Below, in pieces: positions 1 through 32,314 of a stretch of DNA of 64,000 bases. Each line of letters begins with the position of its first letter. Within the stretch, counting starts at the first letter, position 1. This DNA comes from Chloropicon primus (taxonomy: Eukaryota). The DNA lies in the NCBI GenBank assembly GCA_023205875.1, contig CP060759.1:930001-994000 (forward strand), given 5' to 3'. The position numbers and the translations under genes were made by a program. Below the pieces are notes generated by a model. The model was not told the origin of the DNA, ran no database searches, and saw only the letters and a list, made by a program, of their open reading frames with translations.

Positions 1-3000
1 AACCATGATCCAATGCATGCTGTGACAACAACAATGCTGTCTTCTGCTATCAGATATCCAAACCATACAAATTCAAACCAAAGGTTCTTGAATGTCCTTA
101 ACAACCAGTCCGAGCTTTGCGCAGTCACTCCACTTCAACGGTGGGACCGCATGGATTGGTATTCCTCACAGGGCTATGGGAACGACATCTATGTGCCCTT
201 TGGATACTGGCTTCCAGACCTCTGGACCTTCCAACCTGATGCACTAAGCATGACTTCCGCAGAATCCCTTTATGTGGACCCACAAGGAAGGAAGCTCCTG
301 GAGGTCACATGGGAGGCCATGTACAACACTCCTCTATCTTCAAACAAACATGCCAGAACAAATACAGGCGTTTATGTAGGATGTATGTACACAGAGTACC
401 CACATATCCTGAAGGGGGCAAACATGGCAAACAATGCTGGTACAGGTACTGGAAGCGGCATTAGCTTCCTTTGTGGTCGTGTTTCTTATGTGATGGGCTT
501 CAAAGGACCATGCATCAGCATAGATACTGCATGTTCCTCCTCCCTTGCAGCAACTCACTTGGGCAGGACAGCCATTATAGCACATGAATGTGATACAGCA
601 ACAATAGCAGGAACAAATATAATGATTGCACCACAAACAACCCAAGGTGTTTGCAATTTGCAAGCCCTTGCCGTGGATGGAAGATGCAAAACCCTTGATG
701 CAACTGCAAATGGATATGGCCGTGCCGAAGCTATTGCTGCCGTAATCATTGCAAATGCAAACGATACACACACGAACATGCTCAAAATGCCTGTCAACAT
801 CGTTGCATCTTTTGTGAACCAAGATGGAAGATCAAGCAGTCTGACTGCACCAAATGGGCCATCACAGTCAACACTCATCTCATCTGCTTTGAGGCAAGCA
901 AATCTGAAGCCAGAACAAATCAACCATGTTGTCATGCATGGAACAGGAACACCTCTGGGTGACCCAATTGAGGTTGGTGCCCTGGGACAAGCATTCCATT
1001 CAGATGACAAAGTTCATATGCTTGCACTTGCTGCAGTCAAGGTTGCTTTCGGACATACAGAAGGAGCAGCAGGACTCACGGGCCTACTTAGTGCAATGCA
1101 GTCGTGTAGCACGTTATGCATTCAACCGGTTACCGCATGCAGAAACATGAATGTTCATGTGCAGGGTGCAATCAAAGATCATAGAGATGGGCACAAAAGA
1201 GTCACTTCTGCAAGGATTCAACAAGGTCCTTGGTCATTCACTTGTGATGAAAACAATGACAAAGCAATCGCAGGGACAAGCTCGTTTGGCATGAGCGGAG
1301 TCAACAGTCACGGGGTTGTTGAAGCAAAACTTGCAGGCCATACTTACAATGCGCAGAGTATTGCATGGAACAACAAGCAAGTACTCTTCCCAATGGTTGG
1401 GTGTGCATTTGTGAAGGCTTCCTACAAAGCATCTACAAAACAACACCAAGTATTTGCGATTCAAATCAAGGACCACAACCTTCTGAGCTACATGGTCATG
1501 GGGAAATCCATTTTACCAGGTGCAGGATTCATGGAACTGTCATCAGCCTCTGCACGAGCTATGCTTAATCCAAACGTCTTACGTGATCTCAAACCAGTGC
1601 TTGCAAAGATATCAATTCCAGCCCCGATGCAGTTGGAACCAAACAAACATCAAATGATGCAATGTACGGTGGACACAGTGACCGGACAAGTAGGACTGAA
1701 AAGTCACAAAACCTGGAATCTCCAAGCCATATGGAAGAAACCAGTCAAACACTTGCCAGAGCGCCAAACCACACACCAAGATCAAAACGAGTGGAACAAA
1801 GGCATCATGGGTATAATGCACCACAATCAAGCTGCACACACAGCCAATGCAATTGCAACAGTCGCCAAAACATCAAATGACCTCTATGATTACACCGTCA
1901 ACCCAGCTGTGGGCGACGCAAATCTACAGCTTGGTGCCGTGGAAAGCGTGATTCGTTTGGCGAGCCAAGACAATGCTAGTCAAGAAACGCAAGTACCAAC
2001 GGGTTGCCATGCCTATTACATGGGCGACCAGTCAGATGCTCCAGCAGCATACACGGCAGTCTGTCAGAATGGCTCCCAAGCTGGCATCTCAAGCCATAGA
2101 CTAAAAAGTCTATGTGAAGAGATCAACTGTGCCTCAGTTCTCAATTTGCAAACCAAAGCAGCATTTAGATTGCAAAGTGCTTTGAATGCAGCCAACAGCC
2201 AACAGAAAGTGCAAGAAAAGGACATGCTCTTATCGGCTTTGGTGTGGTCAGCCTGCTATGCGACCCCTCTGGACTGCGCTGCTCATCAAAATGCAATAAT
2301 CGCAGGATCAAGGGACGCACAAGAGAATGTGCTTCTCGTGAAACTTGGAGACGCGCAATCCAATTTGGAGCATCCTCTCAAGATTGCATGCAGAAATGCA
2401 GGAGCTCTCTATTCATCATCTCATGTGGATAGTCCTGAAATGCAAGAGTACCTGACAAACACCTCAAAGTCGGTCCACGTTGTTTGCCTTGTCTCGCACC
2501 AGGCAAATGTTGCAAAGCAACTTGTAGGCCTTGCCAACCTTGTCAAAGCAGTGAACAAGTCAAACATGGAATCACCTAGTATCACTGTGGTTTTCTTGGA
2601 TTCACAAACGACCATGAACGTCCAACACAACACCTCAAAAGCATTGTGGGGAGCATGCAGGACGATGAGAATGGAGTACCCATCCTTGCAATTGACAACC
2701 ATTCAAATGGATGCACACATGGACAAGAGTCAGGCAGCTCTTTACCTCGTGTCAGAAATCCAAAACAAACATTCAACTGAAAAGGAAGTCATGTACAAGA
2801 ATGCGACACGATACATCAATACCATTGTGGAGAAGTATCCTTCTGCATCACAGCATCTCTCCCTCAATCCACATCTGGAAAAGCTCCAGAGAGGATCATA
2901 TGTTATCACAGGAGGTCTTGGAGGTCTGGGCCTTGTGACCGCGCAACTTCTTGCAGATATGGGAGCGACAAGCATATCTCTCCTCTCAAGAAGTGGCATC

Positions 3001-6000
3001 ATTCAGCGCACGGACCAAAACCTTAATGCCATTCTCGACAAAGTAAGAGAGAAAGCCAATGTGGAGGTTATCGCATGTGATGTGAGCAAAGAAGATCATG
3101 TGCGCAATCTCTACACAAAGCAAAACCATCCTTGTGTGGGAATTATACATGCTGCCGGTGTCTTACGAGATGGCCTTGCTGCAAATCTCAACCATACTCA
3201 GGTCCAACAGGTATTTGACCCAAAGATCAGTGGCGCTTTGCATTTGCATCACAACACACTCCTGCAGCCATTGCAGGTATGCATCATGTTCTCCTCCATA
3301 GCTTCACTCTATGGAAACATTGGTCAGACCTCCTACAGTGCAGCAAATACCTATCTTGATACTTTGGCTGCTCTAAGGCAAAACCAAGGCCTTCCTGCGG
3401 TCAGCATACAATGGCCAGCAATATCTGGCATTGGCATGTGGGAAGGTCTATCAAGTGTCCACAAGAAAACAACACCGTTCACGCTGTCTGTCGAGGGAGC
3501 TATCACATCTCTCAATAAGATTGTGAAGGACCTTTCATCCTTCACAATCACAACCGTGACGATTTTACCAAGGTGGATGATCTACGGAACCAGGGAAAAG
3601 AACAAAGCACACATGGCAGCAAAGGCGGATCCAAATGAAATCCAGCGGCAGCCAACAAGCGGAAGAAGCCAGAGCGTCAAATTCACATCTGTAGCTGTGT
3701 TGACTTCCCAAGTGCAAAATACAATTGAGCAAGCAGTCATAGATACTATTGGAGAAACCATTGACACGGAAAGTCCTCTCATGGAAGCAGGAGTCGACTC
3801 GCTTGCTTCATCAGAGCTTATCAACAAGATCAATGATGACATGGGAACCTCTTTGGGGCCCACAATCTTGTTCGACTATCCAACAATTCAGGATCTCACA
3901 CAGCACCTTGTGCAGACCCTCGAAGGACCTGACGCTACAGATCACGCCATTGAGGCTGTGGAGCGCATCCCAAACCATGATCCAATGCATGCTGTGACAA
4001 CAACAATGCTGTCTTCTGCTATCAGATATCCAAACCATACAAATTCAAACCAAAGGTTCTTGAATGTCCTTAACAACCAATCCGAGCTTTGCTCAGTCAC
4101 TCCACTTCAACGGTGGGACCGCATGGATTGGTATTCCTCACAGGGCTATGGGAACGACATCTATGTGCCCTTTGGATACTGGCTTCCAGACCTCTGGACA
4201 TTCCAACCTGATGCACTAAGCATGACTTCCGCAGAATCCCTTTATGTGGACCCACAAGGAAGGAAGCTCCTGGAGGTCACATGGGAGGCCATGTACAACA
4301 CTCCTCTATCTTCAAACAAACATGCCAGAACAAATACAGGTGTTTATGTAGGATGTTGTCAACAAGAATTTCAGCACATGCACTACTATCCTGAGAAAAA
4401 AGCACTCCTTACTGGATATAGCTTCCTTTGTGGTCGTGTTTCTTATGTGATGGGCTTCAAAGGACCATGCATCAGCATAGATACTGCATGTTCCTCCTCG
4501 CTTGCAGCAACTCACTTGGGCAGGACAGCCATTATAGCACATGAATGCGATACAGCAACAATAGCAGGAACAAATATAATGATTGCACCACAAACAACGC
4601 AAGCTATTTGCAATTTGCAAGCCCTTGCCGTGGATGGAAGATGCAAAACCCTTGATGCAACTGCAAATGGATATGGCCGTGCCGAAGCTATTGCTGCCGT
4701 AATCATTGCAAATGCAAACGATACACACACGAACATGCTCAAAATGCCTGTCAACATCGTTGCATCTTTTGTGAACCAAGATGGAAGATCAAGCAGTCTG
4801 ACTGCACCAAATGGGCCATCACAGTCAACACTCATCTCATCTGCTTTGAGGCAAGCAAATCTGAAGCCAGAACAAATCAACCATGTTGTCATGCATGGAA
4901 CAGGAACACCTCTGGGTGACCCAATTGAGGTTGGTGCCCTGGGACAAGCATTCCATTCAGATGACAAAGTTCATATGCTTGCACTTGCTGCAGTCAAGGT
5001 TGCTTTCGGACATACAGAAGGAGCAGCAGGACTCACGGGCCTACTTAGTGCAATGCAGTCGTGTAGCACGTTATGCATTCAACCGGTTACCGCATGCAGA
5101 AACATGAATGTTCATGTGCAGGGTGCAATCAAAGATCATAGAGATGGGCACAAAAGAGTCACTTCTGCAAGGATTCAACAAGGTCCTTGGTCATTCACTT
5201 GTGATGAAAACAATGACAAAGCAATCGCAGGGACAAGCTCGTTTGGCATGAGCGGAGTCAACAGTCACGGGGTTGTTGAAGCAAAACTTGCAGGTCATAC
5301 TTACAATGCGCAGAGTATTGCATGGAACAACAAGCAAGTACTCTTCCCAATGGTTGGGTGTGCATTTGTGAAGGCTTCCTACAAAGCATCTACAAAACAA
5401 CACCAAGTATTTGCGATTCAAATCAAGGACCACAACCTTCTGAGCTACATGGTCATGGGGAAATCCATTTTACCAGGTGCAGGATTCATGGAACTGTCAT
5501 CAGCCTCTGCACGAGCTATGCTCAATCCAAACGTCTTACGTGATCTCAAACCAGTGCTTGCAAAGATATCAATTCCAGCCCCGATGCAGTTGGAACCAAA
5601 CAAACATCAAATGATGCAATGTACGGTGGACACAGTGACCGGACAAGTAGGACTGAAAAGTCACAAAACCTGGAATCTCCAAGCCATATGGAAGAAACCA
5701 GTCAAACACTTGCCAGAGCGCCAAACCACACACCAAGATCAAAACGAGTGGAACAAAGGCATCATGGGTATAATGCACCACAATCAAGCTGCACACACAG
5801 CCAATGCAATTGCAACAGTCGCCAAAACATCAAATGACCTCTATGATTACACCGTCAACCCAGCTGTGGGCGACGCAAATCTACAGCTTGGTGCCGTGGA
5901 AAGCGTGATTCGTTTGGCGAGCCAAGACAATGCTAGTCAAGAAACGCAAGTACCAACGGGTTGCCATGCCTATTACATGGACGACCAGTCAGATGCTCCA

Positions 6001-9000
6001 GCAGCATACACGGCAGTCTGTCAGAATGGCTCCCAAGCTGGCATCTCAAGCCATAGACTAAAAAGTCTATGTGAAGAGATCAACTGTGCCTCAGTTCTCA
6101 ATTTGCAAACCAAAGCAGCATTTAGATCGCAAAGTGCTTTGAATGCAGCCAACAGCCAACAGAAAGTGCAAGAAAAGGACATGCTCTTATCGGCTTTGGT
6201 GTGGTCAGCCTGCTATGCGACCCCTCTGGACTGCGCTGCTCATCAAAATGCAATAATCGCAGGATCAAGGGACGCACAAGAGAATGTGCTTCTCGTGAAA
6301 CTTGGAGACGCGCAATCCAATTTGGAGCATCCTCTCAAGATTGCATGCAGAAATGCAGGAGCTCTCTATTCATCATCTCATGTGGATAGTCCTGAAATGC
6401 AAGAGTACCTGACAAACACCTCAAAGTCGGTCCACGTTGTTTGCCTTGTCTCGCACCAAGCAAATGTTGCAAAGCAACTTGTAGGCCTTGCCAACCTTGT
6501 CAAAGCGGTGAACAAGTCAAACATGGAATCACCTAGTATCACTGTGGTTTTCTTGGATTCACAAACGACCATGAACGTCCAACACAACACCTCAAAAGCA
6601 TTGTGGGGAGCATGCAGGACGATGAGAATGGAGTACCCATCCTTGCAATTGACAACCATTCAAATGGATGCACACATGGACAAGAGTCAGGCAGCTCTTT
6701 ACCTCGTGTCAGAAATCCAAAACAAACATTCAACTGAAAAGGAAGTCATGTACAAGAATGCGACACGATACATCAATACCATTGTGGAGAAGTATCCTTC
6801 TGCATCACAGCATCTCTCCCTCAATCCACATCTGGAAAAGCTCCAGAGAGGATCATATGTTATCACAGGAGGTCTTGGAGGTCTGGGCCTTGTGACCGCG
6901 CAACTTCTTGCAGATATGGGAGCGACAAGCATATCTCTCCTCTCAAGAAGTGGCATCATTCAGCGCACGGACCAAAACCTTAATGCCATTCTCGACAAAG
7001 TAAGAGAGAAAGCCAATGTGGAGGTTATCGCATGTGATGTGAGCAAAGAAGATCATGTGCGCAATCTCTACACAAAGCAAAACCATCCTTGTGTGGGAAT
7101 TATACATGCTGCCGGTGTCTTACGAGATGGCCTTGCTGCAAATCTCAACCATACTCAGGTCCAACAGGTATTTGACCCAAAGATCAGTGGCGCTTTGCAT
7201 TTGCATCACAACACACTCCTGCAGCCATTGCAGGTATGCATCATGTTCTCCTCCATAGCTTCACTCTATGGAAACATTGGTCAGACCTCCTACAGTGCAG
7301 CAAATACCTATCTTGATACATTGGCTGCTCTAAGGCAAAACCAAGGCCTTCCTGCGGTCAGCATACAATGGCCAGCAATATCTGGCATTGGCATGTGGGA
7401 AGGTCTATCAAGTGTCCACAAGAAAACAACACCGTTCACGCTGTCTATCGAGGGAGCTATCACATCTCTCAATAAGATTGTGAAGGACCTTTCATCCTTC
7501 ACAATCACAACCGTGACGATTTTACCAAGGTGGATGATCTACGGAACCAGGGAAAAGAACAAAGCACACATGGCAGCAAAGGCGGATCCAAATGAAATCC
7601 AGCGGCAGCCAACAAGCGGAAGAAGCCAGAGCGTCAAATTCACATCTGTAGCTGTGTTGACTTCCCAAGTGCAAAATACAATTGAGCAAGCAGTCATAGA
7701 TACTATTGGAGAAACCATTGACACGGAAAGTCCTCTCATGGAAGCAGGAGTCGACTCGCTTGCTTCATCAGAGCTTATCAACAAGATCAATGATGACATG
7801 GGAACCTCTTTGGCGCCCACAATCTTGTTCGACTATCCAACAATTCAGGATCTCACACAGCACCTTGTGCAGACCCTCAAAGGACCTGACGCTACAGATC
7901 ACGCCATTGAGGCTGTGGAGCGCATCCCAAACCATGATCCAATGCATGCTGTGACAACAACAATGCTGTCTTCTGCTATCAGATATCCAAACCATACAAA
8001 TTCAAACCAAAGGTTCTTGAATGTCCTTAACAACCAGTCCGAGCTTTGCTCAGTCACTCCACTTCAACGGTGGGACCGCATGGATTGGTATTCCTCACAG
8101 GGCTATGGGAACGACATCTATGTGCCCTTTGGATACTGGCTTCCAGACCTCTGGACCTTCCAACCTGATGCACTAAGCATGACTTCCGCAGAATCCCTTT
8201 ATGTGGACCCACAAGGAAGGAAGCTCCTGGAGGTCACATGGGAGGCCATGTACAACACTCCTCTATCTTCAAACAAACATGCCAGAACAAATACAGGTGT
8301 TTATGTAGGATGTTGTCAACAAGACTTTCAGCACATGCACTACTATCCTGAGAAAAAAGCACTCCTTACTGGATATAGCTTCCTTTGTGGTCGTGTTTCT
8401 TATGTGATGGGCTTCAAAGGACCATGCATCAGCATAGATACTGCATGTTCCTCCTCGCTTGCAGCAACTCACTTGGGCAGGACAGCCATTATAGCACATG
8501 AATGTGATACAGCAACAATAGCAGGAACAAATATAATGATTGCACCACAAACAACGCAAGCTATTTGCAATTTGCAAGCCCTTGCCGTGGATGGAAGATG
8601 CAAAACCCTTGATGCAACTGCAAATGGATATGGCCGTGCCGAAGCTATTGCTGCCGTAATCATTGCAAATGCAAACGATACACAAACGAACATGCTCAAA
8701 ATGCCTGTCAACATCGTTGCATCTTTTGTGAACCAAGATGGAAGATCAAGCAGTCTGACTGCACCAAATGGGCCATCACAGTCAACACTCATCTCATCTG
8801 CTTTGAGGCAAGCAAATCTGAAGCCAGAACAAATCAACCATGTTGTCATGCATGGAACAGGAACACCTCTGGGTGACCCAATTGAGGTTGGTGCCCTGGG
8901 ACAAGCATTCCATTCAGATGACAAAGTTCATATGCTTGCACTTGCTGCAGTCAAGGTTGCTTTTGGACATACAGAAGGAGCAGCAGGACTCACGGGCCTA

Positions 9001-12000
9001 CTTAGTGCAATGCAGTCGTGTAGCACGTTATGCATTCAACCGGTTACCGCATGCAGAAACATGAATGTTCATGTGCAGGGTGCAATCAAAGATCATAGAG
9101 ATGGGCACAAAAGAGTCACTTCTGCAAGGATTCAACAAGGTCCTTGGTCATTCACTTGTGATGAAAACAATGACAAAGCAATCGCAGGGACAAGCTCGTT
9201 TGGCATGAGCGGAGTCAACAGTCACGGGGTTGTTGAAGCAAAACTTGCAGGCCATACTTACAATGCGCAGAGTATTGCATGGAACAACAAGCAAGTACTC
9301 TTCCCAATGGTTGGGTGTGCATCTGTGAAGGCTTCCTACAAAGCACCTACAAAACAACACCAAGCATTTGCGATTCAAATCAAGGACCACAACCTGCTCG
9401 ACCACATGGTCATGGGGAAATCCATTTTACCAGGTGCAGGATTCATGGAACTGTCATCAGCCTCTGCACGAGCTATGCTTAATCCAAACGTCTTACGTGA
9501 TCTCAAACCAGTGCTTGCAAAGATATCAATTCCAGCCCCGATGCAGTTGGAACCAAACAAACATCAAATGATGCAATGTACGGTGGACACAGTGACCGGA
9601 CAAGTAGGACTGAAAAGTCACAAAACCTGGAATCTCCAAGCCATATGGAAGAAACCAGTCAAACACTTGCCAGAGCGCCAAACCACACACGAAGATCAAA
9701 ACGAGTGGAACAAAGGCATCATGGGTATAATGCACCACAATCAAGCTGCACACACAGCCAATGCAATTGCAACAGTCGCCAAAACATCAAATGACCTCTA
9801 TGATTACACCGTCAACCCAGCTGTGGGCGACGCAAATCTACAGCTTGGTGCCGTGGAAAGCGTGATTCGTTTGGCGAGCCAAGACAATGCTAGTCAAGAA
9901 ACGCAAGTACCAACGGGTTGCCATGCCTATTACATGGGCGACCAGTCAGATGCTCCAGCAGCATACACGGCAGTCTGTCAGAATGGCTCCCAAGCTGGCA
10001 TCTCAAGCCATAGACTAAAAAGTCTATGTGAAGAGATCAACTGTGCCTCAGTTCTCAATTTGCAAACCAAAGCAGCATTTAGATTGCAAAGTGCTTTGAA
10101 TGCAGCCAACAGCCAACAGAAAGTGCAAGAAAAGGACATGCTCTTATCGGCTTTGGTGTGGTCAGCCTGCTATGCGACCCCTCTGGACTGCGCTGCTCAT
10201 CAAAATGCAATAATCGCAGGATCAAGGGACGCACAAGAGAATGTGCTTCTCGTGAAACTTGGAGACGCGCAATCCAATTTGGAGCATCCTCTCAAGATTG
10301 CATGCAGAAATGCAGGAGCTCTCTATTCATCATCTCATGTGGATAGTCCTGAAATGCAAGAGTACCTGACAAACACCTCAAAGTCGGTCCACGTTGTTTG
10401 CCTTGTCTCGCACCAAGCAAATGTTGCAAAGCAACTTGTAGGCCTTGCCAACCTTGTCAAAGCGGTGAACAAGTCAAACATGGAATCACCTAGTATCACT
10501 GTGGTTTTCTTGGATTCACAAACGACCATGAACGTCCAACACAACACCTCAAAAGCATTGTGGGGAGCATGCAGGACGATGAGAATGGAGTACCCATCCT
10601 TGCAATTGACAACCATTCAAATGGATGCACACATGGACAAGAGTCAGGCAGCTCTTTACCTCGTGTCAGAAATCCAAAACAAACATTCAACTGAAAAGGA
10701 AGTCATGTACAAGAATGCGACACGATACATCAATACCATTGTGGAGAAGTATCCTTCTGCATCACAGCATCTCTCCCTCAATCCACATCTGGAAAAGCTC
10801 CAGAGAGGATCATATGTTATCACAGGAGGTCTTGGAGGTCTGGGTCTTGTGACCGCGCAACTTCTTGCAGATATGGGAGCGACAAGCATATCTCTCCTCT
10901 CAAGAAGTGGCATCATTCAGCGCACGGACCAAAACCTTAATGCCATTCTCGACAAAGTAAGAGAGAAAGCCAATGTGGAGGTTATCGCATGTGATGTGAG
11001 CAAAGAAGATCATGTGCGCAATCTCTACACAAAGCAAAACCATCCTTGTGTGGGAATTATACATGCTGCCGGTGTCTTACGAGATGGCCTTGCTGCAAAT
11101 CTCAACCATACTCAGGTCCAACAGGTATTTGACCCAAAGATCAGTGGCGCTTTGCATTTGCATCACAACACACTCCTGCAGCCATTGCAGGTATGCATCA
11201 TGTTCTCCTCCATAGCTTCACTCTATGGAAGCATTGGTCAGACCTCCTACAGTGCAGCAAATACCTATCTTGATACTTTGGCTGCTCTAAGGCAAAACCA
11301 AGGCCTTCCTGCGGTCAGCATACAATGGCCAGCAATATCTGGCATTGGCATGTGGGAAGGTCTATCAAGTGTCCACAAGAAAACAACACCGTTCACGCTG
11401 TCTGTCGAGGGAGCTATCACATCTCTCAATAAGATTCTGAAGGACCTTTCATCCTTCACAATCACAACCGTGACGATTTTACCAAGGTGGATGATCTACG
11501 GAACCAGGGAAAAGAACAAAGCACACATGGCAGCAAAGGCGGATCCAAATGAAATCCAGCGGCAGCCAACAAGCGGAAGAAGCCAGAGCGTCAAATTCAC
11601 ATCTGTAGCTGTGTTGACTTCCCAAGTGCAAAATACAATTGAGCAAGCAGTCATAGATACTATCGGAGAAACCATTGACACGGAAAGTCCTCTCATGGAA
11701 GCAGGAGTCGACTCGCTTGCTTCATCAGAGCTTATCAACAAGATCAATGATGACATGGGAACCTCTTTGGGGCCCACAATCTTGTTCGACTATCCAACAA
11801 TTCAGGATCTCACACAGCACCTTGTGCAGACCCTCAAAGGACCTGACGCTACAGATCACGCCATTGAGGCTGTGGAGCGCATCCCAAACCATGATCCAAT
11901 GCATGCTGTGACAACAACAATGCTGTCTTCTGCTATCAGATATCCAAACCATACAAATTCAAACCAAAGGTTCTTGAATGTCCTTAACAACCAATCCGAG

Positions 12001-18000: not shown

Positions 18001-21000
18001 TTTGGACATACAGAAGGAGCAGCAGGACTCACGGGCCTACTTAGTGCAATGCAGTCGTGTAGCACGTTATGCATTCAACCGGTTACCGCATGCAGAAACA
18101 TGAATGTTCATGTGCAGGGTGCAATCAAAGATCATAGAGATGGGCACAAAAGAGTCACTTCTGCAAGGATTCAACAAGGTCCTTGGTCATTCACTTGTGA
18201 TGAAAACAATGACAAAGCAATCGCAGGGACAAGCTCGTTTGGCATGAGCGGAGTCAACAGTCACGGGGTTGTTGAAGCAAAACTTGCAGGCCATACTTAC
18301 AATGCGCAGAGTATTGCATGGAACAACAAGCAAGTACTCTTCCCAATGGTTGGGTGTGCATTTGTGAAGGCTTCCTACAAAGCATCTACAAAACAACACC
18401 AAGTATTTGCGATTCAAATCAAGGACCACAACCTGCTCGACCACATGGTCATGGGGAAATCCATTTTACCAGGTGCAGGATTCATGGAACTGTCATCAGC
18501 CTCTGCACGAGCTATGCTCAATCCAAACGTCTTACGTGATCTCAAACCAGTGCTTGCAAAGATATCAATTCCAGCCCCGATGCAGTTGGAACCAAACAAA
18601 CATCAAATGATGCAATGTACGGTGGACACAGTGACCGGACAAGTAGGACTGAAAAGTCACAAAACCTGGAATCTCCAAGCCATATGGAAGAAACCAGTCA
18701 AACACTTGCCAGAGCGCCAAACCACACACGAAGATCAAAACGAGTGGAACAAAGGCATCATGGGTATAATGCACCACAATCAAGCTGCACACACAGCCAA
18801 TGCAATTGCAACAGTCGCCAAAACATCAAATGACCTCTATGATTACACCGTCAACCCAGCTGTGGGCGACGCAAATCTACAGCTTGGTGCCGTGGAAAGC
18901 GTGATTCGTTTGGCGAGCCAAGACAATGCTAGTCAAGAAACGCAAGTACCAACGGGTTGCCATGCCTATTACATGGGCGACCAGTCAGATGCTCCAGCAG
19001 CATACACGGCAGTCTGTCAGAATGGCTCCCAAGCTGGCATCTCAAGCCATAGACTAAAAAGTCTATGTGAAGAGATCAACTGTGCCTCAGTTCTCAATTT
19101 GCAAACCAAAGCAGCATTTAGATCGCAAAGTGCTTTGAATGCAGCCAACAGCCAACAGAAAGTGCAAGAAAAGGACATGCTCTTATCGGCTTTGGTGTGG
19201 TCAGCCTGCTATGCGACCCCTCTGGACTGCGCTGCTCATCAAAATGCAATAATCGCAGGATCAAGGGACGCACAAGAGAATGTGCTTCTCGTGAAACTTG
19301 GAGACGCGCAATCCAATTTGGAGCATCCTCTCAAGATTGCATGCAGAAATGCAGGAGCTCTCTATTCATCATCTCATGTGGATAGTCCTGAAATGCAAGA
19401 GTACCTGACAAACACCTCAAAGTCGGTCCACGTTGTTTGCCTTGTCTCGCACCAAGCAAATGTTGCAAAGCAACTTGTAGGCCTTGCCAACCTTGTCAAA
19501 GCGGTGAACAAGTCAAACATGGAATCACCTAGTATCACTGTGGTTTTCTTGGATTCACAAACGACCATGAACGTCCAACACAACACCTCAAAAGCATTGT
19601 GGGGAGCATGCAGGACGATGAGAATGGAGTACCCATCCTTGCAATTGACAACCATTCAAATGGATGCACACATGGACAAGAGTCAGGCAGCTCTTTACCT
19701 CGTGTCAGAAATCCAAAACAAACATTCAACTGAAAAGGAAGTCATGTACAAGAATGCGACACGATACATCAATACCATTGTGGAGAAGTATCCTTCTGCA
19801 TCACAGCATCTCTCCCTCAATCCACATCTGGAAAAGCTCCAGAGAGGATCATATGTTATCACAGGAGGTCTTGGAGGTCTGGGTCTTGTGACCGCGCAAC
19901 TTCTTGCAGATATGGGAGCGACAAGCATATCTCTCCTCTCAAGAAGTGGCATCATTCAGCGCACGGACCAAAACCTTAATGCCATTCTCGACAAAGTAAG
20001 AGAGAAAGCCAATGTGGAGGTTATCGCATGTGATGTGAGCAAAGAAGATCATGTGCGCAATCTCTACACAAAGCAAAACCATCCTTGTGTGGGAATTATA
20101 CATGCTGCCGGTGTCTTACGAGATGGCCTTGCTGCAAATCTCAACCATACTCAGGTCCAACAGGTATTTGACCCAAAGATCAGTGGCGCTTTGCATTTGC
20201 ATCACAACACACTCCTGCAGCCATTGCAGGTATGCATCATGTTCTCCTCCATAGCTTCACTCTATGGAAGCATTGGTCAGACCTCCTACAGTGCAGCAAA
20301 TACCTATCTTGATACTTTGGCTGCTCTAAGGCAAAACCAAGGCCTTCCTGCGGTCAGCATACAATGGCCAGCAATATCTGGCATTGGCATGTGGGAAGGT
20401 CTATCAAGTGTCCACAAGAAAACAACACCGTTCACGCTGTCTGTCGAGGGAGCTATCACATCTCTCAATAAGATTCTGAAGGACCTTTCATCCTTCACAA
20501 TCACAACCGTGACGATTTTACCAAGGTGGATGATCTACGGAACCAGGGAAAAGAACAAAGCACACATGGCAGCAAAGGCGGATCCAAATGAAATCCAGCG
20601 GCAGCCAACAAGCGGAAGAAGCCAGAGCGTCAAATTCACATCTGTAGCTGTGTTGACTTCCCAAGTGCAAAAAACAATTGAGCAAGCAGTCATAGATACT
20701 ATTGGAGAAACCATTGACACGGAAAGTCCTCTCATGGAAGCAGGAGTCGACTCGCTTGCTTCATCAGAGCTTATCAACAAGATCAATGATGACATGGGAA
20801 CCTCTTTGGGGCCCACAATCTTGTTCGACTATCCAACAATTCAGGATCTCACACAGCATCTTGTGCAGACCCTCAAAGGACCTGACGCTACAGATCACGC
20901 CATTGAGGCTGTGGAGCGCATCCCAAACCATGATCCAATGCATGCTGTGACAACAACAATGCTGTCTTCTGCTATCAGATATCCAAACCATACAAATTCA

Positions 21001-24000
21001 AACCAAAGGTTCTTGAATGTCCTTAACAACCAATCCGAGCTTTGCGCAGTCACTCCACTTCAACGGTGGGACCGCATGGATTGGTATTCCTCACAGGGCT
21101 ATGGGAACGACATCTATGTGCCCTTTGGATACTGGCTTCCAGACCTCTGGACATTCCAACCTGATGCACTAAGCATGACTTCCGCAGAATCCCTTTATGT
21201 GGACCCACAAGGAAGGAAGCTCCTGGAGGTCACATGGGAGGCCATGTACAACACTCCTCTATCTTCAAACAAACATGCCAGAACAAATACAGGTGTTTAT
21301 GTAGGATGCATGTCCACAGAGTACCCACATATCCTGAAGGGGGCAAACATGGCAAACAATGCTGGTACAGGTACTGGAAGCGGCATTAGCTTCCTTTGTG
21401 GTCGTGTTTCTTATGTGATGGGCTTCAAAGGACCATGCATCAGCATAGATACTGCATGTTCCTCCTCCCTTGCAGCAACTCACTTGGGCAGGACAGCCAT
21501 TATAGCACATGAATGTGATACAGCAACAATAGCAGGAACAAATATAATGATTGCACCACAAACAACGCAAGGTGTTTGCAATTTGCAAGCCCTTGCCGTG
21601 GATGGAAGATGCAAAACCCTTGATGCAACTGCAAATGGATATGGCCGTGCCGAAGCTATTGCTGCCGTAATCATTGCAAATGCAAACGATACACACACGA
21701 ACATGCTCAAAATGCCTGTCAACATCGTTGCATCTTTTGTGAACCAAGATGGAAGATCAAGCAGTCTGACTGCACCAAATGGGCCATCACAGTCAACACT
21801 CATCTCATCTGCTTTGAGGCAAGCAAATCTGAAGCCAGAACAAATCAACCATGTTGTCATGCATGGAACAGGAACACCTCTGGGTGACCCAATTGAGGTT
21901 GGTGCCCTGGGACAAGCATTCCATTCGGATGACAAAGTTCATATGCTTGCACTTGCTGCAGTCAAGGTTGCTTTCGGACATACAGAAGGAGCAGCAGGAC
22001 TCACGGGCCTACTTAGTGCAATGCAGTCGTGTAGCACGTTATGCATTCAACCGGTTACCGCATGCAGAAACATGAATGTTCATGTGCAGGGTGCAATCAA
22101 AGATCATAGAGATGGGCACAAAAGAGTCACTTCTGCAAGGATTCAACAAGGTCCTTGGTCATTCACTTGTGATGAAAACAATGACAAAGCAATCGCAGGG
22201 ACAAGCTCGTTTGGCATGAGCGGAGTCAACAGTCACGGGGTTGTTGAAGCAAAACTTGCAGGCCATACTTACAATGCGCAGAGTATTGCATGGAATAACA
22301 GGCAAGTACTCTTCCCAATGGTTGGGTGTGCATTTGTGAAGGCTTCCTACAAAGCATCTACAAAACAACACCAAGTATTTGCGATTCAAATCAAGGACCA
22401 CAACCTGCTCGACCACATGGTCATGGGGAAATCCATTTTACCAGGTGCAGGATTCATGGAACTGTCATCAGCCTCTGCACGAGCTATGCTCAATCCAAAC
22501 GTCTTACGTGATCTCAAACCAGTGCTTGCAAAGATATCAATTCCAGCCCCGATGCAGTTGGAACCAAACAAACATCAAATGATGCAATGTACGGTGGACA
22601 CAGTGACCGGACAAGTAGGACTGAAAAGTCACAAAACCTGGAATCTCCAAGCCATATGGAAGAAACCAGTCAAACACTTGCCAGAGCGCCAAACCACACA
22701 CGAAGATCAAAACGAGTGGAACAAAGGCATCATGGGTATAATGCACCACAATCAAGCTGCACACACAGCCAATGCAATTGCAACAGTCGCCAAAATATCA
22801 AATGACCTCTATGATTACACCGTCAACCCAGCTGTGGGCGACGCAAATCTACAGCTTGGTGCCGTGGAAAGCGTGATTCGTTTGGTGAGCCAAGACAATG
22901 CTAGTCAAGAAACGCAAGTACCAACGGGTTGCCATGCCTATTACATGGGCGACCAGTCAGATGCTCCAGCAGCATACACGGCAGTCTGTCAGAATGGCTC
23001 CCAAGCTGGCATCTCAAGCCATAGACTAAAAAGTCTATGTGAAGAGATCAACTGTGCCTCAGTTCTCAATTTGCAAACCAAAGCAGCATTTAGATCGCAA
23101 AGTGCTTTGAATGCAGCCAACAGCCAACAGAAAGTGCAAGAAAAGGACATGCTCTTATCGGCTTTGGTGTGGTCAGCCTGCTATGCGACCCCTCTGGACT
23201 GCGCTGCTCATCAAAATGCAATAATCGCAGGATCAAGGGACGCACAAGAGAATGTGCTTCTCGTGAAACTTGGAGACGCGCAATCCAATTTGGAGCATCC
23301 TCTCAAGATTGCATGCAGAAATGCAGGAGCTCTCTATTCATCATCTCATGTGGATAGTCCTGAAATGCAAGAGTACCTGACAAACACCTCAAAGTCGGTC
23401 CACGTTGTTTGCCTTGTCTCGCACCAAGCAAATGTTGCAAAGCAACTTGTAGGCCTTGCCAACCTTGTCAAAGCGGTGAACAAGTCAAACATGGAATCAC
23501 CTAGTATCACTGTGGTTTTCTTGGATTCACAAACGACCATGAACGTCCAACACAACACCTCAAAAGCATTGTGGGGAGCATGCAGGACGATGAGAATGGA
23601 GTACCCATCCTTGCAATTGACAACCATTCAAATGGATGCACACATGGACAAGAGTCAGGCAGCTCTTTACCTCGTGTCAGAAATCCAAAACAAACATTCA
23701 ACTGAAAAGGAAGTCATGTACAAGAATGCGACACGATACATCAATACCATTGTGGAGAAGTATCCTTCTGCATCACAGCATCTCTCCCTCAATCCACATC
23801 TGGAAAAGCTCCAGAGAGGATCATATGTTATCACAGGAGGTCTTGGAGGTCTGGGTCTTGTGACCGCGCAACTTCTTGCAGATATGGGAGCGACAAGCAT
23901 ATCTCTCCTCTCAAGAAGTGGCATCATTCAGCGCACGGACCAAAACCTTAATGCCATTCTCGACAAAGTAAGAGAGAAAGCCAATGTGGAGGTTATCGCA

Positions 24001-27000
24001 TGTGATGTGAGCAAAGAAGATCATGTGCGCAATCTCTACACAAAGCAAAACCATCCTTGTGTGGGAATTATACATGCTGCCGGTGTCTTACGAGATGGCC
24101 TTGCTGCAAATCTCAACCATACTCAGGTCCAACAGGTATTTGACCCAAAGATCAGTGGCGCTTTGCATTTGCATCACAACACACTCCTGCAGCCATTGCA
24201 GGTATGCATCATGTTCTCCTCCATAGCTTCACTCTATGGAAGCATTGGTCAGACCTCCTACAGTGCAGCAAATACCTATCTTGATACTTTGGCTGCTCTA
24301 AGGCAAAACCAAGGCCTTCCTGCGGTCAGCATACAATGGCCAGCAATATCTGGCATTGGCATGTGGGAAGGTCTATCAAGTGTCCACAAGAAAACAACAC
24401 CATTTACTTTGGCAGTGACAGATGTTGTGAAGGTGATGAAACATCTTGTTTCAAGTGTCCCAATTCCTGCACCAAACATTGCTATGCTGCCACAAAGCCT
24501 CGTTCACGACGTAAATGTTGAGAGGAAGCAAAACGATAAAAACATGGACCCTGTTGTTGATACAAAGGATCCGTCTTGGTATGAATTGCCTTCTCAATGG
24601 AAGCAGTTGCAAGTGACTAAGCTCTCCAACAACTTCAGTGAAGCAACTTCGATGCAGCATCTCAACACATTAGATTGTGAAGAAAATGAAGTGGTAGTAC
24701 GGGTCATCTATGCAGGAGTCAATGCTAGTGATGTCAACTTCAGTGCTGGAAAGTACCATGGAAGTGAAGCAGCAGCAACGAAAGCTCTCCCATTTGCAGC
24801 TGGACTTGAAGGTGTAGGTCTTGTGGTTAAGAAAGGAAGCAAAACAAAGATCTCTATTGGGAGTCCCGTGGCATGCATGGCACCTGGTTGTTATTCAGAC
24901 TTCCTCACAATCAAGGAAAGCAGTCTACTTACTATCTCTGAGATACAAATTGAGACAGTTGCACTGCTAACATCTGGACTCACAGCAACGCTTGCGCTTT
25001 CTCAAGTCGGCCAAATGAAAAATGGTGGTGAAACCGTCCTAGTTACAGCAGCCGCTGGTGGCACCGGTCAATTTGCTGTTCAGCTTGCAAAACTGGCAGG
25101 TAACCGTGTTATAGCAACATGCAGCAACCCAAGAAAGAAAGATCTTCTTGAAGAACTCGGAGCAGAACGTGTCATCAACTACAAATTGGAAGATGTCCAA
25201 AAGTTCTCAAAGAAGAATACCCACGTGGCATTTCCCTTGTATATGATGGAGTTGGAGGGAAATTGCTTCAAAACATTCTTCCAGCTGTGTCGCCACTGGG
25301 TAGAATTGTCACCATTGGCGCCGTGTCAACATACCAAGCAGATGAAGAATCTGCGTTGAAACAGGAGCACATGCAAAGTTTGTACCAACGTGGAGTGTCC
25401 ATCTTGGGCTTTTACTTGCCCGCATACAAGAGTCAGTTCCAAAAGTACCTCAATCAACTCTGTGACCTTCATCGCACTAAGAAACTTAGGGTACACGTGG
25501 ATGTCAAGAAACGATATTGCGGGGCTGAAATGGCCCCTGATGCTGTCAAAGATCTCCACTCTGGAAAGACTCAGGGGAAGGTTGTTGTGCAAATACCACA
25601 ACATGTGCCAAAAACATTCAAAGACCTTTCTGCTCAGCTCAAAACTAATTACAGCCTGAACACGAATGCAGTACCAAAAAGCAAAGACAGCAACAAAATG
25701 CAAGTTGACGTTGTCTCCCTGACTTCCCAAGTGCAAAAAACAATTGAGCAAGCAGTCATAGATACTATTGGAGAAACCATTGACACGGAAAGTCCTCTCA
25801 TGGAAGCAGGAGTCGACTCGCTTGCTTCATCAGAGCTTATCAACAAGATCAATGATGACATGGGAACCTCTTTGGCGCCCACAATCTTGTTCGACTATCC
25901 AACAATTCAGGATCTCACACAGCACCTTGTGCAGACCCTCAAAGGACCTGACGCTACAGATCACGCCATTGAGGCTGTGGAGCGCATCCCAAACCATGAT
26001 CCAATGCATGCTGTGACAACAACAATGCTGTCTTCTGCTATCAGATATCCAAACCATACAAATTCAAACCAAAGGTTCTTGAATGTCCTTAACAACCAAT
26101 CCGAGCTTTGCGCAGTCACTCCACTTCAACGGTGGGACCGCATGGATTGGTATTCCTCACAGGGCTATGGGAACGACATCTATGTGCCCTTTGGATACTG
26201 GCTTCCAGACCTCTGGACATTCCAACCTGATGCACTAAGCATGACTTCCGCAGAATCCCTTTATGTGGACCCACAAGGAAGGAAGCTCCTGGAGGTCACA
26301 TGGGAGGCCATGTACAACACTCCTCTATCTTCAAACAAACATGCCAGAACAAATACAGGTGTTTATGTAGGATGCATGTCCACAGAGTACCCACATATCC
26401 TGAAGGGGGCAAACATGGCAAACAATGCTGGTACAGGTACTGGAAGCGGCATTAGCTTCCTTTGTGGTCGTGTTTCTTATGTGATGGGCTTCAAAGGACC
26501 ATGCATCAGCATAGATACTGCATGTTCCTCCTCGCTTGCAGCAACTCACTTGGGCAGGACAGCCATTATAGCACATGAATGTGATACAGCAACAATAGCA
26601 GGAACAAATATAATGATTGCACCACAAACAACGCAAGGTGTTTGCAATTTGCAAGCCCTTGCCGTGGATGGAAGATGCAAAACCCTTGATGCAACTGCAA
26701 ATGGATATGGCCGTGCCGAAGCTATTGCTGCCGTAATCATTGCAAATGCAAACGATACATACACGAACATGCTCAAAATGCCTGTCAACATCGTTGCATC
26801 TTTTGTGAACCAAGATGGAAGATCAAGCAGTCTGACTGCACCAAATGGGCCATCACAGTCAACACTCATCTCATCTGCTTTGAGGCAAGCAAATCTGAAG
26901 CCAGAACAAATCAACCATGTTGTCATGCATGGAACAGGAACACCTCTGGGTGACCCAATTGAGGTTGGTGCCCTGGGACAAGCATTCCATTCAGATGACA

Positions 27001-30000
27001 AAGTTCATATGCTTGCACTTGCTGCAGTCAAGGTTGCTTTCGGACATACAGAAGGAGCAGCAGGACTCACGGGCCTACTTAGTGCAATGCAGTCGTGTAG
27101 CACGTTATGCATTCAACCGGTTACCGCATGCAGAAACATGAATGTTCATGTGCAGGGTGCAATCAAAGATCATAGAGATGGGCACAAAAGAGTCACTTCT
27201 GCAAGGATTCAACAAGGTCCTTGGTCATTCACTTGTGATGAAAACAATGACAAAGCAATCGCAGGGACAAGCTCGTTTGGCATGAGCGGAGTCAACAGTC
27301 ACGGGGTTGTTGAAGCAAAACTTGCAGGCCATACTTACAATGCGCAGAGTATTGCATGGAACAACAAGCAAGTACTCTTCCCAATGGTTGGGTGTGCATT
27401 TGTGAAGGCTTCCTACAAAGCATCTACAAAACAACACCAAGTATTTGCGATTCAAATCAAGGACCACAACCTGCTCGACCACATGGTCATGGGGAAATCC
27501 ATTTTACCAGGTGCAGGATTCATGGAACTGTCATCAGCCTCTGCACGAGCTATGCTCAATCCAAACGTCTTACGTGATCTCAAACCAGTGCTTGCAAAGA
27601 TATCAATTCCAGCCCCGATGCAGTTGGAACCAAACAAACATCAAATGATGCAATGTACGGTGGACACAGTGACCGGACAAGTAGGACTGAAAAGTCACAA
27701 AACCTGGAATCTCCAAGCCATATGGAAGAAACCAGTCAAACACTTGCCAGAGCGCCAAACCACACACGAAGATCAAAACGAGTGGAACAAAGGCATCATG
27801 GGTATAATGCACCACAATCAAGCTGCACACACAGCCAATGCAATTGCAACAGTCGCCAAAACATCAAATGACCTCTATGATTACACCGTCAACCCAGCTG
27901 TGGGCGACGCAAATCTACAGCTTGGTGCCGTGGAAAGCGTGATTCGTTTGGTGAGCCAAGACAATGCTAGTCAAGAAACGCAAGTACCAACGGGTTGCCA
28001 TGCCTATTACATGGGCGACCAGTCAGATGCTCCAGCAGCATACACGGCAGTCTGTCAGAATGGCTCCCAAGCTGGCATCTCAAGCCATAGACTAAAAAGT
28101 CTATGTGAAGAGATCAACTGTGCCTCAGTTCTCAATTTGCAAACCAAAGCAGCATTTAGATCGCAAAGTGCTTTGAATGCAGCCAACAGCCAACAGAAAG
28201 TGCAAGAAAAGGACATGCTCTTATCGGCTTTGGTGTGGTCAGCCTGCTATGCGACCCCTCTGGACTGCGCTGCTCATCAAAATGCAATAATCGCAGGATC
28301 AAGGGACGCACAAGAGAATGTGCTTCTCGTGAAACTTGGAGACGCGCAATCCAATTTGGAGCATCCTCTCAAGATTGCATGCAGAAATGCAGGAGCTCTC
28401 TATTCATCATCTCATGTGGATAGTCCTGAAATGCAAGAGTACCTGACAAACACCTCAAAGTCGGTCCACGTTGTTTGCCTTGTCTCGCACCAAGCAAATG
28501 TTGCAAAGCAACTTGTAGGCCTTGCCAACCTTGTCAAAGCGGTGAACAAGTCAAACATGGAATCACCTAGTATCACTGTGGTTTTCTTGGATTCACAAAC
28601 GACCATGAACGTCCAACACAACACCTCAAAAGCATTGTGGGGAGCATGCAGGACGATGAGAATGGAGTACCCATCCTTGCAATTGACAACCATTCAAATG
28701 GATGCACACATGGACAAGAGTCAGGCAGCTCTTTACCTCGTGTCAGAAATCCAAAACAAACATTCAACTGAAAAGGAAGTCATGTACAAGAATGCGACAC
28801 GATACATCAATACCATTGTGGAGAAGTATCCTTCTGCATCACAGCATCTCTCCCTCAATCCACATCTGGAAAAGCTCCAGAGAGGATCATATGTTATCAC
28901 AGGAGGTCTTGGAGGTCTGGGTCTTGTGACCGCGCAACTTCTTGCAGATATGGGAGCGACAAGCATATCTCTCCTCTCAAGAAGTGGCATCATTCAGCGC
29001 ACGGACCAAAACCTTAATGCCATTCTCGACAAAGTAAGAGAGAAAGCCAATGTGGAGGTTATCGCATGTGATGTGAGCAAAGAAGATCATGTGCGCAATC
29101 TCTACACAAAGCAAAACCATCCTTGTGTGGGAATTATACATGCTGCCGGTGTCTTACGAGATGGCCTTGCTGCAAATCTCAACCATACTCAGGTCCAACA
29201 GGTATTTGACCCAAAGATCAGTGGCGCTTTGCATTTGCATCACAACACACTCCTGCAGCCATTGCAGGTATGCATCATGTTCTCCTCCATAGCTTCACTC
29301 TATGGAAGCATTGGTCAGACCTCCTACAGTGCAGCAAATACCTATCTTGATACTTTGGCTGCTCTAAGGCAAAACCAAGGCCTTCCTGCGGTCAGCATAC
29401 AATGGCCAGCAATATCTGGCATTGGCATGTGGGAAGGTCTATCAAGTGTCCACAAGAAAACAACACCATTTACTTTGGCAGTGACAGATGTTGTGAAGGT
29501 GATGAAACATCTTGTTTCAAGTGTCCCAATTCCTGCACCAAACATTGCTATGCTGCCACAAAGCCTCGTTCACGACGTAAATGTTGAGAGGAAGCAAAAC
29601 GATAAAAACATGGACCCTGTTGTTGATACAAAGGATCCGTCTTGGTATGAATTGCCTTCTCAATGGAAGCAGTTGCAAGTGACTAAGCTCTCCAACAACT
29701 TCAGTGAAGCAACTTCGATGCAGCATCTCAACACATTAGATTGTGAAGAAAATGAAGTGGTAGTACGGGTCATCTATGCAGGAGTCAATGCTAGTGATGT
29801 CAACTTCAGTGCTGGAAAGTACCATGGAAGTGAAGCAGCAGCAACGAAAGCTCTCCCATTTGCAGCTGGACTTGAAGGTGTAGGTCTTGTGGTTAAGAAA
29901 GGAAGCAAAACAAAGATCTCTATTGGGAGTCCCGTGGCATGCATGGCACCTGGTTGTTATTCAGACTTCCTCACAATCAAGGAAAGCAGTCTACTTACTA

Positions 30001-31916
30001 TCTCTGAGATACAAATTGAGACAGTTGCACTGCTAACATCTGGACTCACAGCAACGCTTGCGCTTTCTCAAGTCGGCCAAATGAAAAATGGTGGTGAAAC
30101 CGTCCTAGTTACAGCAGCCGCTGGTGGCACCGGTCAATTTGCTGTTCAGCTTGCAAAACTGGCAGGTAACCGTGTTATAGCAACATGCAGCAACCCAAGA
30201 AAGAAAGATCTTCTTGAAGAACTCGGAGCAGAACGTGTCATCAACTACAAATTGGAAGATGTCCAAAAAGTTCTCAAAGAAGAATACCCACGTGGCATTT
30301 CCCTTGTATATGATGGAGTTGGAGGGAAATTGCTTCAAAACATTCTTCCAGCTGTGTCGCCACTGGGTAGAATTGTCACCATTGGCGCCGTGTCAACATA
30401 CCAAGCAGATGAAGAATCTGCGTTGAAACAGGAGCACATGCAAAGTTTGTACCAACGTGGAGTGTCCATCTTGGGCTTTTACTTGCCCGCATACAAGAGT
30501 CAGTTCCAAAAGTACCTCAATCAACTCTGTGACCTTCATCGCACTAAGAAACTTAGGGTACACGTGGATGTCAAGAAACGATATTGCGGGGCTGAAATGG
30601 CCCCTGATGCTGTCAAAGATCTCCACTCTGGAAAGACTCAGGGGAAGGTTGTTGTGCAAATACCACAACATGTGCCAAAAACATTCAAAGACCTTTCTGC
30701 TCAGCTCAAAACTAATTACAGCCTGAACACGAATGCAGTACCAAAAAGCAAAGACAGCAACAAAATGCAAGTTGACGTTGTCTCCCTGACTTCCCAAGTG
30801 CAAAAAACAATTGAGCAAGCAGTCATAGATACTATTGGAGAAACCATTGACACGGAAAGTCCTCTCATGGAAGCAGGAGTCGACTCGCTTGCTTCATCAG
30901 AGCTTATCAACAAGATCAATGATGACATGGGAACCTCTTTGGCGCCCACAATCTTGTTCGACTATCCAACAATTCAGGATCTCACACAGCACCTTGTGCA
31001 GACCCTACCTGACGCTACAGATCACGCCATTGAGGCTGTGGAGCGCATCCCAAACCATGATCCAATGCATGCTCCAGCAGGAGGAAAGCTTCACGCAACA
31101 ACAACTTCTTCTAGAGATAGACGTTGCTTGGTTCTTGTTGTACATGGTATCGGGAGCAGTGCTGAGTTTTTGGCTCGGGGCATTAGGACGTTTTTGCCAC
31201 CGTCGTTTGAGGTTGTCGGACTGGACCGTCCAGGTTTTGGCTCTTGGAGTTCGCTTGTTCCCTCGGAGTCGATGAAAGATGTTTTGGCTCATATGTGCGA
31301 CAACTTGCCTGTGATGAATAGGCCTGTTATCATCCTTGGATATAGTTACGGGTCTTTCATCGGCTACGAACTCGCGAAGGTTCTAAGCGCAAAGGGAGTA
31401 GTGGTGCGTGGCCTCATCGTTGCGGCACTTCCAAGTCGCCTGGCTCTCTCGAAGAGGACCCAGGCACGTCTCCACGAAATAAAAGCCCAAATTGAGGACG
31501 GATTTCTACCTATTGAAAACGTCAATGCCGAGATGGTAAAAAACCACCATCTGCGAGAGGCATTCGCGGCGGAGTTCGGTGGTTCAGACGAAGTTCTTCA
31601 TGGCGATGCTCAAGCTGTTACGGGAAGCCTAACGCTTACTCACTATGATGTTGCTGTGACAACTAAGTATCTTCTTGAGACGCCGAAGTCGACAACAGAC
31701 AAACTAAAAATACCTGCATTAGGGCTTTACAACCTTGAGGATGCATTCTGCTCAGAGGAAGAAATCAAAACTTGGTCGGAAATGATTGAGGTAGGGCAAA
31801 GCTTCAGGACAAATTGCACCGGAGAACGGGGCCATATGATGTTCGTAACAAAACCGGGACTTCTGAAGCTAGCAATGCAAATACAAGAATTTGCATTATT
31901 TCTTGACATACCCTGA
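1..31916 (+). CDS. Giant AT-less (trans-AT-type) modular type I polyketide synthase, 5'-partial; 7 modules + TE; 1-bp frameshift at ~25199-25202 splits it into ORFs 13..25359 and 25263..31916
   Basis: The frame is open from base 1 (AAC CAT GAT CCA ATG), so the gene starts upstream of the window. Each module has KS motifs DTACSSS, HGTGT and GHTE, DH motifs (H/Y)MVMGKSILP and DANLQ, KR motifs GGLGGLG, HAAGVLRD and YSAAN, and ACP motif GVDSL. No AT GHSxG motif was seen. Corrected for the frameshift, it gives about 10,630 codons in this window. Confidence 0.95.
13..3984 (+). repeat. PKS module 1 (3972 bp): KS-DH(inactive)-KR-ACP
   Basis: Starts MHAVTTT at 13. DH motif reads LLSYMVMG (His absent, 1486-1491). 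Long KS loop MYTEY. Confidence 0.9.
3985..7941 (+). repeat. PKS module 2 (3957 bp): KS(short loop)-DH(inactive)-KR-ACP
   Basis: KS loop CQQEFQHMHYYPEKKALLTGY is 15 bp shorter than in module 1. DH reads LLSY at 5443-5448. Confidence 0.9.
7942..11898 (+). repeat. PKS module 3 (3957 bp): KS(short loop)-DH-KR-ACP
   Basis: KS loop CQQDFQH. DH motif LLDHMVMGKSILP is intact (9400-9405). Confidence 0.9.
11899..16965 (+). repeat. PKS module 4 (5067 bp): KS-DH-KR-ER-ACP
   Basis: Intact DH. An extra MDR-type reductase block (~15363-16681) with TAAAGGTGQFAVQLAK lies between KR and ACP. Confidence 0.9.
16966..20937 (+). repeat. PKS module 5 (3972 bp): KS-DH-KR-ACP
   Basis: Intact DH, no ER block, KS loop MSTEY. 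Confidence 0.9.
20938..26003 (+). repeat. PKS module 6 (5066 bp): KS-DH-KR-ER-ACP with a 1-bp deletion in the ER
   Basis: One base shorter than module 4. Reads gtccAAAAgttctc at 25195-25208, versus gtccAAAAAgttctc in modules 4 and 7. Confidence 0.9.
26004..31064 (+). repeat. PKS module 7 (5061 bp): KS-DH-KR-ER-ACP
   Basis: Same as module 4 apart from substitutions and a 6-bp (Lys-Gly) deletion in the post-ACP linker (QTLPDATD). Confidence 0.9.
31074..31916 (+). other. C-terminal thioesterase (alpha/beta hydrolase) domain of the PKS
   Basis: VLVVHGIGSS, nucleophile elbow ILGYSYGSFIGYELA (GxSxG), C-terminal GERGHM. Non-repetitive sequence ending at TGA 31914-31916. Confidence 0.85.

Positions 31917-32245: not shown

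Positions 32246-32314
<69 letters not shown>

Follow-up and report, generated by a model that had tools for sequence, protein, structure and literature searches.

How can a polyketide synthase (PKS) whose modules are almost identical in nucleotide sequence hold modules of different chemistry, and what would such an assembly line make? The question is raised by a 64,000-nucleotide stretch of Chloropicon primus DNA, here called the window (GenBank assembly GCA_023205875.1, contig CP060759.1, positions 930,001 to 994,000 of the forward strand), of which positions 1-31916 hold the 3' part of an acyltransferase (AT)-less modular type I PKS gene that ends in a thioesterase (TE) and is open upstream. 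With a probability of roughly 0.6, we read this gene as an AT-less modular PKS, likely expressed and likely loaded by a separate AT, that is predicted from its domains to make a linear hydroxy-unsaturated fatty acid released by its TE. The new parts of this reading are an independent recruitment of an enoylreductase (ER) and a code made of one loop and one His. We consider the chances about even that PKS enoylreduction had a second origin here, Chloropicon having fused the medium-chain dehydrogenase/reductase (MDR) half of a PTGR3-type housekeeping reductase downstream of the ketoreductase (KR) and using it on chains held by the acyl carrier protein (ACP), with gene conversion then erasing other module differences and leaving minimal switches (the His of the dehydratase (DH), one loop of the ketosynthase (KS) and the ER cassette) that reprogram module chemistry.

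A recurrent 21-nt anchor marks seven KS starts (the first positions of the modules in Table 1) and reproduces exactly the module periods given by an earlier, sequence-only reading of the locus (3972, 3957, 3957, 5067, 3972, 5066 and 5061 bp). The modules follow the order KS-DH-KR-(ER)-ACP, and Pfam on M1, M4 and M7 returned KS, weak DH, KR and ACP, with MDR in M4 and M7 and the terminal thioesterase. The KS Cys-His-His, KR and ACP (Ser) motifs are intact in 7/7 modules, whereas the DH His is kept in five and an ER is found in three. The absence of AT domains claimed by that reading was borne out, with no AT match in the three stretches scanned and no GHSxG in either frame of the array, and the search it proposed for a free-standing malonyl-CoA AT leads to three fabD-like malonyl transferases annotated elsewhere in C. 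primus (01p05310, 05p37740 and 09p54370), candidates for this role. Core nucleotide identity between modules is 97.9-99.8%, or 99.4-99.8% outside two patches; the near-identity it described thus holds outside the patches, but the modules are functionally unlike, three having an ER and two lacking the DH His. It had the AT-less repeat right, and missed the PTGR3-type ER, the DH and KS patches and a break in the frame. Protein searches restricted to lengths 4648-14791 and 1051-3000 gave no intact or upstream protein above 44% identity, and metagenome scans found no related loci.

In M4, M6 and M7, a 1.3-kb cassette with an MDR domain stands in place of the last KR helix and linker. The closest solved relative of this domain is human PTGR3 (E 1e-62, vs 6e-20 for the CurK ER), and the top database matches, at 41-48% identity over the MDR half only, come from plants and algae and are of the At1g49670 type, in which a short-chain dehydrogenase/reductase (SDR) is joined to an MDR. 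The domain keeps the NADPH loop and a Tyr common with PTGR3, and a quick tree of 65 rows puts it inside a group of 38 PTGR3-like sequences and outside that of the 24 PKS ERs (SH-aLRT 100), so that it belongs by sequence clade and motif to the PTGR3/At1g49670 type. It departs from canonical PKS ERs both in this grouping and in position, which is not between DH and KR; among 89 homologous ERs in 240 PKSs, 87 precede the KR, 2 end their protein and none follows the KR. Only one of the 150 best MDR matches in a search of 1.84 billion representatives was longer than 1400 aa, at 29% identity, and a thin open-access literature search, judged by title or abstract start, found no report of a PTGR-type ER in a PKS. 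The same ER-ACP-TE order is present in the ENA (metagenomic) protein P0509 (ER 80%, ACP 74% and TE 42% identical), and the fusion is therefore no assembly artefact but older than the split from P0509, with the reductase conserved since. Acquisition of KR and ER together from an SDR-MDR donor was also considered, and was rejected because the SDR half has no significant match to the PKS KR.

The 3476-nt core shared by all modules has 89 variable columns: 53 fall within a KS patch of 78 nt, 5 within a DH patch of 8 nt, and 31 are scattered (15 synonymous, 16 nonsynonymous); clustering of five sites in 8 nt was reached in 0/20000 permutations. Where the solved AmbC DH has the His of its HxxxGxxxxP motif, a residue that is catalytic in DH domains, the DHs of M1 and M2 have lost the aligned His. 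In KS2 and KS3, exactly the KSs that follow the DH-dead M1 and M2, the KS patch has CCQQ, against CMYT or CMST in the others, and the two loop types are 10-13% identical in amino acids. In an alignment of 806 homologous KSs, the patch starts at columns reading VMYH or TNGQ in bacterial KSs, positions that gatekeep enoyl over hydroxy chains according to mutagenesis described in the accessible part of the source (PMC11321453). With upstream module classes of homologous KSs assigned by crude pattern match, Met occupies position 2 in 185/220 KSs after DH-only modules (cis-AT 148/169, AT-less 37/51), 33/155 after KR-only modules (cis-AT 20/102, AT-less 13/53) and 2/66 after ER modules; in the C. 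primus array it is missing from both KSs after DH-dead modules and present in the other five. A split of the loops into hydroxyl and non-hydroxyl types agrees with 6/6 visible junctions, and the finer CMYT/CMST split with 5/6, failing at M5 -> KS6. A GV/AI variant of the KS, tried as a marker of chemistry, does not follow upstream chemistry. KS pairs that match at 95% or more outside the loop are present in nine of 239 multi-KS homologs, and a swapped loop was seen only in P0110, a cis-AT PKS of Nocardia brasiliensis whose KSs are 96-98% identical outside the gatekeeping loop and 11.5% inside it, a bacterial parallel.

By their LRD motif, a mark of B-type KRs, the KRs of this array are predicted to be B-type and would give D-hydroxyls and trans alkenes. 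By the usual PKS rules, a separate acyltransferase would load malonyl units onto the ACPs in trans, DH-dead modules would leave a hydroxyl, DH-only modules would leave a trans double bond, and the borrowed PTGR3-type reductase would saturate the chain, with each KS loop suited to whatever chemistry the preceding module performs and the TE releasing the product by hydrolysis. Gene conversion would hold the modules to near-identity, and selection would preserve the difference at the two small patches. In assembled order, the predicted tail is a 13,15-dihydroxy-6,10-dienoic acid, with a further predicted C16 double bond if the KS1 loop is read as enoyl-accepting. To our knowledge, few green-algal PKS products are known. 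Our guess, by analogy with Chlamydomonas PKS1 as the accessible part of its report describes it (PMC6912462), is that the product may be a wall or stress lipid.

One recent amplification and continual homogenisation had both been offered for the likeness of the modules, and continual homogenisation appears to fit better. Patches that are old and deeply diverged persist inside modules that are ~99.5% identical and look young, and a piece of ACP-KS linker has been copied in front of the TE and is absent there in P0509; gene conversion is proposed for these two reasons. GC skew in the array is 0.00 to -0.08 and TA skew -0.09 to -0.19 (2-kb bins), values to be set beside the strong GC and TA skew described for repeats in GRINS-driven PKS gene conversion. 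The G+C content of the 1-31916 block is 46-47%, vs 51-62% downstream. At third codon positions, it is 0.39-0.45 in the modules, 0.58 in the TE and 0.69-0.86 in six neighbouring genes, for which a foreign origin of the PKS or AT-biased conversion may be causes; low-GC PKS regions have been named for C. primus chromosomes 3, 5 and 8, not 6 (PMC6731263).

As assembled, the frame is split into 8452 codons (1-25359) and 2254 codons in a different frame (25152-31916), and the single open reading frame (ORF) of more than 10,600 codons that had been proposed is therefore discontinuous, becoming one frame once the A missing at 25198 is restored. Because contigs of three sequencing runs (X1, X4 and X5; three of the four runs examined cover the site) hold this A at full depth, the break is likely an assembly error, and no other stop is found across 31.9 kb. 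A decaying, frameshifted pseudogene would also have a broken frame, and the published annotation has two genes here, a PKS and, with no more than weak PKS matches, an 'alcohol dehydrogenase', at low RNA depths of 4.59 and 5.21 (PMC6731263 and its supplements), but such decay is very improbable given an intact A-run in 3/3 runs covering the site, intact catalytic motifs and probable RNA contigs over the PKS. The weak PKS matches of the supposed dehydrogenase indicate that annotation cut the tail off the PKS. Expression, which the sequence-only reading had left to be checked, is likely, because contigs of X4 and X5 splice four introns of a neighbouring gene (the DNA runs do not) and also cover the PKS, and the published RNA depth is 4.6-5.2; the two runs are taken as probable RNA from spliced joints only, neither being recorded as such. 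A rival view of the reductase is that it is no on-line ER but acts on the released product or another enone, or is a passenger, in which case the ER modules would pass enoyl chains and the product would be more unsaturated. PTGR3 itself acts on free enones, none of 89 homologous ERs shares the post-KR position, and an enoyl-type Met is retained in the KSs that follow ER modules, which fits recent ER recruitment but also a reductase without action on the tethered chain. We judge this view unlikely, as in several modules the domain adjoins the ACP, it is the part best conserved in P0509, both the NADPH loop and the Tyr found also in PTGR3 are retained, and a passenger or trans-acting enzyme would need no copy per module. 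Several observations nevertheless count against an expressed, loop-coded assembly line: the status of X4 and X5 as RNA is not on record, DH Pfam scores are weak (22-30 bits), KS6 has a CMST loop after a non-ER module, and position-2 Met follows ER modules here although it does so in only 2/66 homologous KSs. Position-4 Gln occurs after KR-only modules in only 2/53 AT-less KSs, and CCQQ is thus itself no known hydroxyl motif. The Ser-Tyr DH allele is seen as a variant in no run contig, its sole outside hint being a low-depth X7 contig that ends at 22406, one base short of the DH patch. To these is added the uncertain number and order of the modules.

Short-read contigs of four runs collapse the array to one looped module, which is independent proof of near-identity and tandem arrangement. 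Seven KS starts stand in the assembly, as had been claimed, but contig depth makes about four to five repeated modules likelier than seven. On balance, we favour the view that the assembly has two haplotypes stacked in it or has looped round the repeat, the true gene having about four to five repeated modules and the order in the window being partly artificial, which would alter the predicted product but leave the types of module as they are. With the unique TE contig as baseline, depth is 4.2 for the core (X1) and 3.8 for the KS-DH half (X2; 4.7 after maximal GC correction), where 6.0-6.2 is expected for seven modules and 3.5-3.6 for four; the DH-KR half is at 5.3 (X2), the non-ER linker at 2.1-2.2, and the alternative KS loop at 1.0-1.1, or 1.0-1.2 where it is compared with the ~1.7 expected for seven modules by hand estimate. 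Such contig depth is a rough measure and no true copy number, X1 and X2 come from one sample, ratios between module variants cannot separate seven from four modules, which leaves the TE baseline to do so, and that baseline is itself 0.4-0.6 of flank depth. ER depth is 2.3-2.4, and its GC-corrected value of 3.2-3.6 agrees with the three ER copies assembled; each module pair also differs at 6-19 sites outside the patches. On the side of over-assembly, contigs have, at module columns 2168, 2749 and 3302-3, letters that no module of the seven contains, and, if the window derives from the published assembly, its subread N50 of 4.89 kb is about one module and long alleles were kept (PMC6731263). Among the 18 indels that the C. 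primus paper tabulates for chromosome 6, nothing is of module size (PMC6731263). Both X4 and X5 have a loose end at module position 1646, where an X2 contig also breaks; it points to at least one further module, upstream, with a different front half and with its sequence outside the window. In the depth-fitting four-module reading (M1, M3, M4, M7), all junctions agree with the loop code and the predicted tail would be a 9-hydroxy-6,10-dienoic acid. The low depth of the TE contig (31044-32027) is seen in X1 and X2, both of whose contigs stop at 32027, with a loose end in X5 before 31971; the cause may be GC bias, or else a second haplotype that differs there. The gene model needs correction to one frame with no separate 'alcohol dehydrogenase' and an uncertain module count.

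Table 1. Coordinates of the PKS modules, their variable parts and neighbouring features in the window.
Feature	Position	Strand	Remarks
Module 1 (M1)	1-3972	+	KS (CMYT loop)-DH without catalytic His-KR-ACP; open upstream
DH patch, M1	1482-1489	+	5 changes in 8 nt, Asp-His -> Ser-Tyr
Module 2 (M2)	3973-7929	+	KS (CCQQ loop)-DH without His-KR-ACP
Alternative KS gatekeeping loop, KS2	4356-4418	+	5 aa shorter
DH patch, M2	5439-5446	+	same as M1
Module 3 (M3)	7930-11886	+	KS (CCQQ loop)-DH-KR-ACP
Alternative KS gatekeeping loop, KS3	8313-8375	+	
Module 4 (M4)	11887-16953	+	KS (CMYT)-DH-KR-PTGR3-type ER-ACP
Module 5 (M5)	16954-20925	+	KS (CMST)-DH-KR-ACP
Module 6 (M6)	20926-25991	+	KS (CMST)-DH-KR-ER-ACP; contains frame break
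Single A absent from A-run	25198	+	module 6; contigs of X1, X4, X5 hold the A
Module 7 (M7)	25992-31052	+	KS (CMST)-DH-KR-ER-ACP
PTGR3-type MDR reductase between KR and ACP, M7	29640-30680	+	copies ~15535-16575 (M4), ~24574-25613 (M6)
Leftover ACP-KS linker, thioesterase and stop	31053-31916	+	GYSYG at 31338
Small gene, TIM22-like 06p45140	32045-32770	-	four CT..AC introns, spliced in X4/X5
Intein in nuclear DNA polymerase zeta	39120-40211	+	364 aa; inside REV3 ORF 35088-41330
19-KH-domain protein	42734-48097	+	internal 429-bp array, 5.2 copies at 98% identity, plus 237-bp array

The order PKS, TIM22, Hsp70, REV3, cryptochrome, glgC and Mre11 agrees with C. primus chromosome 6 loci 06p45120-06p45250 and places the gene in a green-algal nuclear genome (PMC6731263 supplements); a KH protein also lies among these neighbours, between REV3 and cryptochrome. 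The REV3 intein is at the conserved YGD|TDS site, runs from Ser to His-Asn|Thr and has a LAGLIDADG-like motif, a C-terminal intein model scores above its cut-off, and probable RNA contigs pass through it unspliced. No intein in an algal REV3 was found in the literature, judged by title or abstract start. With its arrays, the KH protein adds another case of homogenised coding repeats, at a distance of 11 kb from the PKS.

Should the borrowed reductase act on the assembly line, it would follow that a foreign ER, newly placed, can be accommodated by PKS modules, a point of interest for their architecture and engineering. As the KSs are 99% identical outside one loop, a loop swap would directly gauge the loop's share of gatekeeping, in a eukaryotic trans-AT system, and a readable module code points to a lipid to seek in an abundant oceanic picoalga.

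By its sequence features, the gene belongs with the chlorophyte trans-AT PKSs: repeated KS...ACP modules with KS Cys-His-His and ACP Ser in 7/7, no integrated AT, and a green-algal host; its best whole-protein matches include green-algal PKSs at 31-39% identity. There is support for the first reading's trans-AT modular PKS of undescribed product and homogenised modules, though its headline is known in kind, an AT-less algal PKS with near-identical modules having been published (PMC4661987); on Chloropicon PKSs, nothing pertinent was found in the literature beyond the genome paper. As described in the accessible part of that report, the chlorophyte enzymes OluPKS3, OtaPKS1, MicPKS2 and Chlamydomonas PKS1 are likewise AT-less and without a described product, with several KS-DH-KR-(ER)-ACP modules and near-identical duplicates, those of Ostreococcus OluPKS3 being 89-98% similar with KS and ACP at 98-100% (Shelest et al. 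2015, PMC4661987). The C. primus gene differs in that its ER is PTGR3-type and follows the KR, where mapped algal-type homologs have a PKS-type ER before the KR, and in that its near-identity spans modules of three different chemistries. PTGR3/ZADH2 and plant At1g49670 share 41-48% identity over the MDR half, with NADPH loop and Tyr retained, but are free enzymes, whereas C. primus embeds only the MDR half between KR and ACP. PKZILLA-1/-2 of Prymnesium are also giant, repetitive trans-AT algal PKSs for which long reads were needed to mend repeat mis-assembly, but, in the part of the source available, they are haptophyte and intron-containing, with 56 modules and a known polyether product (10.1101/2024.01.29.577497). 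Mycolactone MlsA1/A2/B is similar in its >98.5% nucleotide identity of like domains, attributed to ongoing recombination, and in its active/inactive DH differences, but is bacterial, cis-AT and plasmid-borne; nine residues account for all differences among its 15 KSs, and the accessible text mentions no swapped loop (PMC2569948). The VMYH/TNGQ motifs of actinomycete cis-AT PKSs, as set out in the part available of Ray, Saif and Keatinge-Clay (2024, PMC11321453), occupy the same columns and have the same position-2 Met after DH-only modules, lost after hydroxyl-leaving ones, whereas C. primus swaps a whole loop of 21-26 residues in KSs that are otherwise 99% identical.

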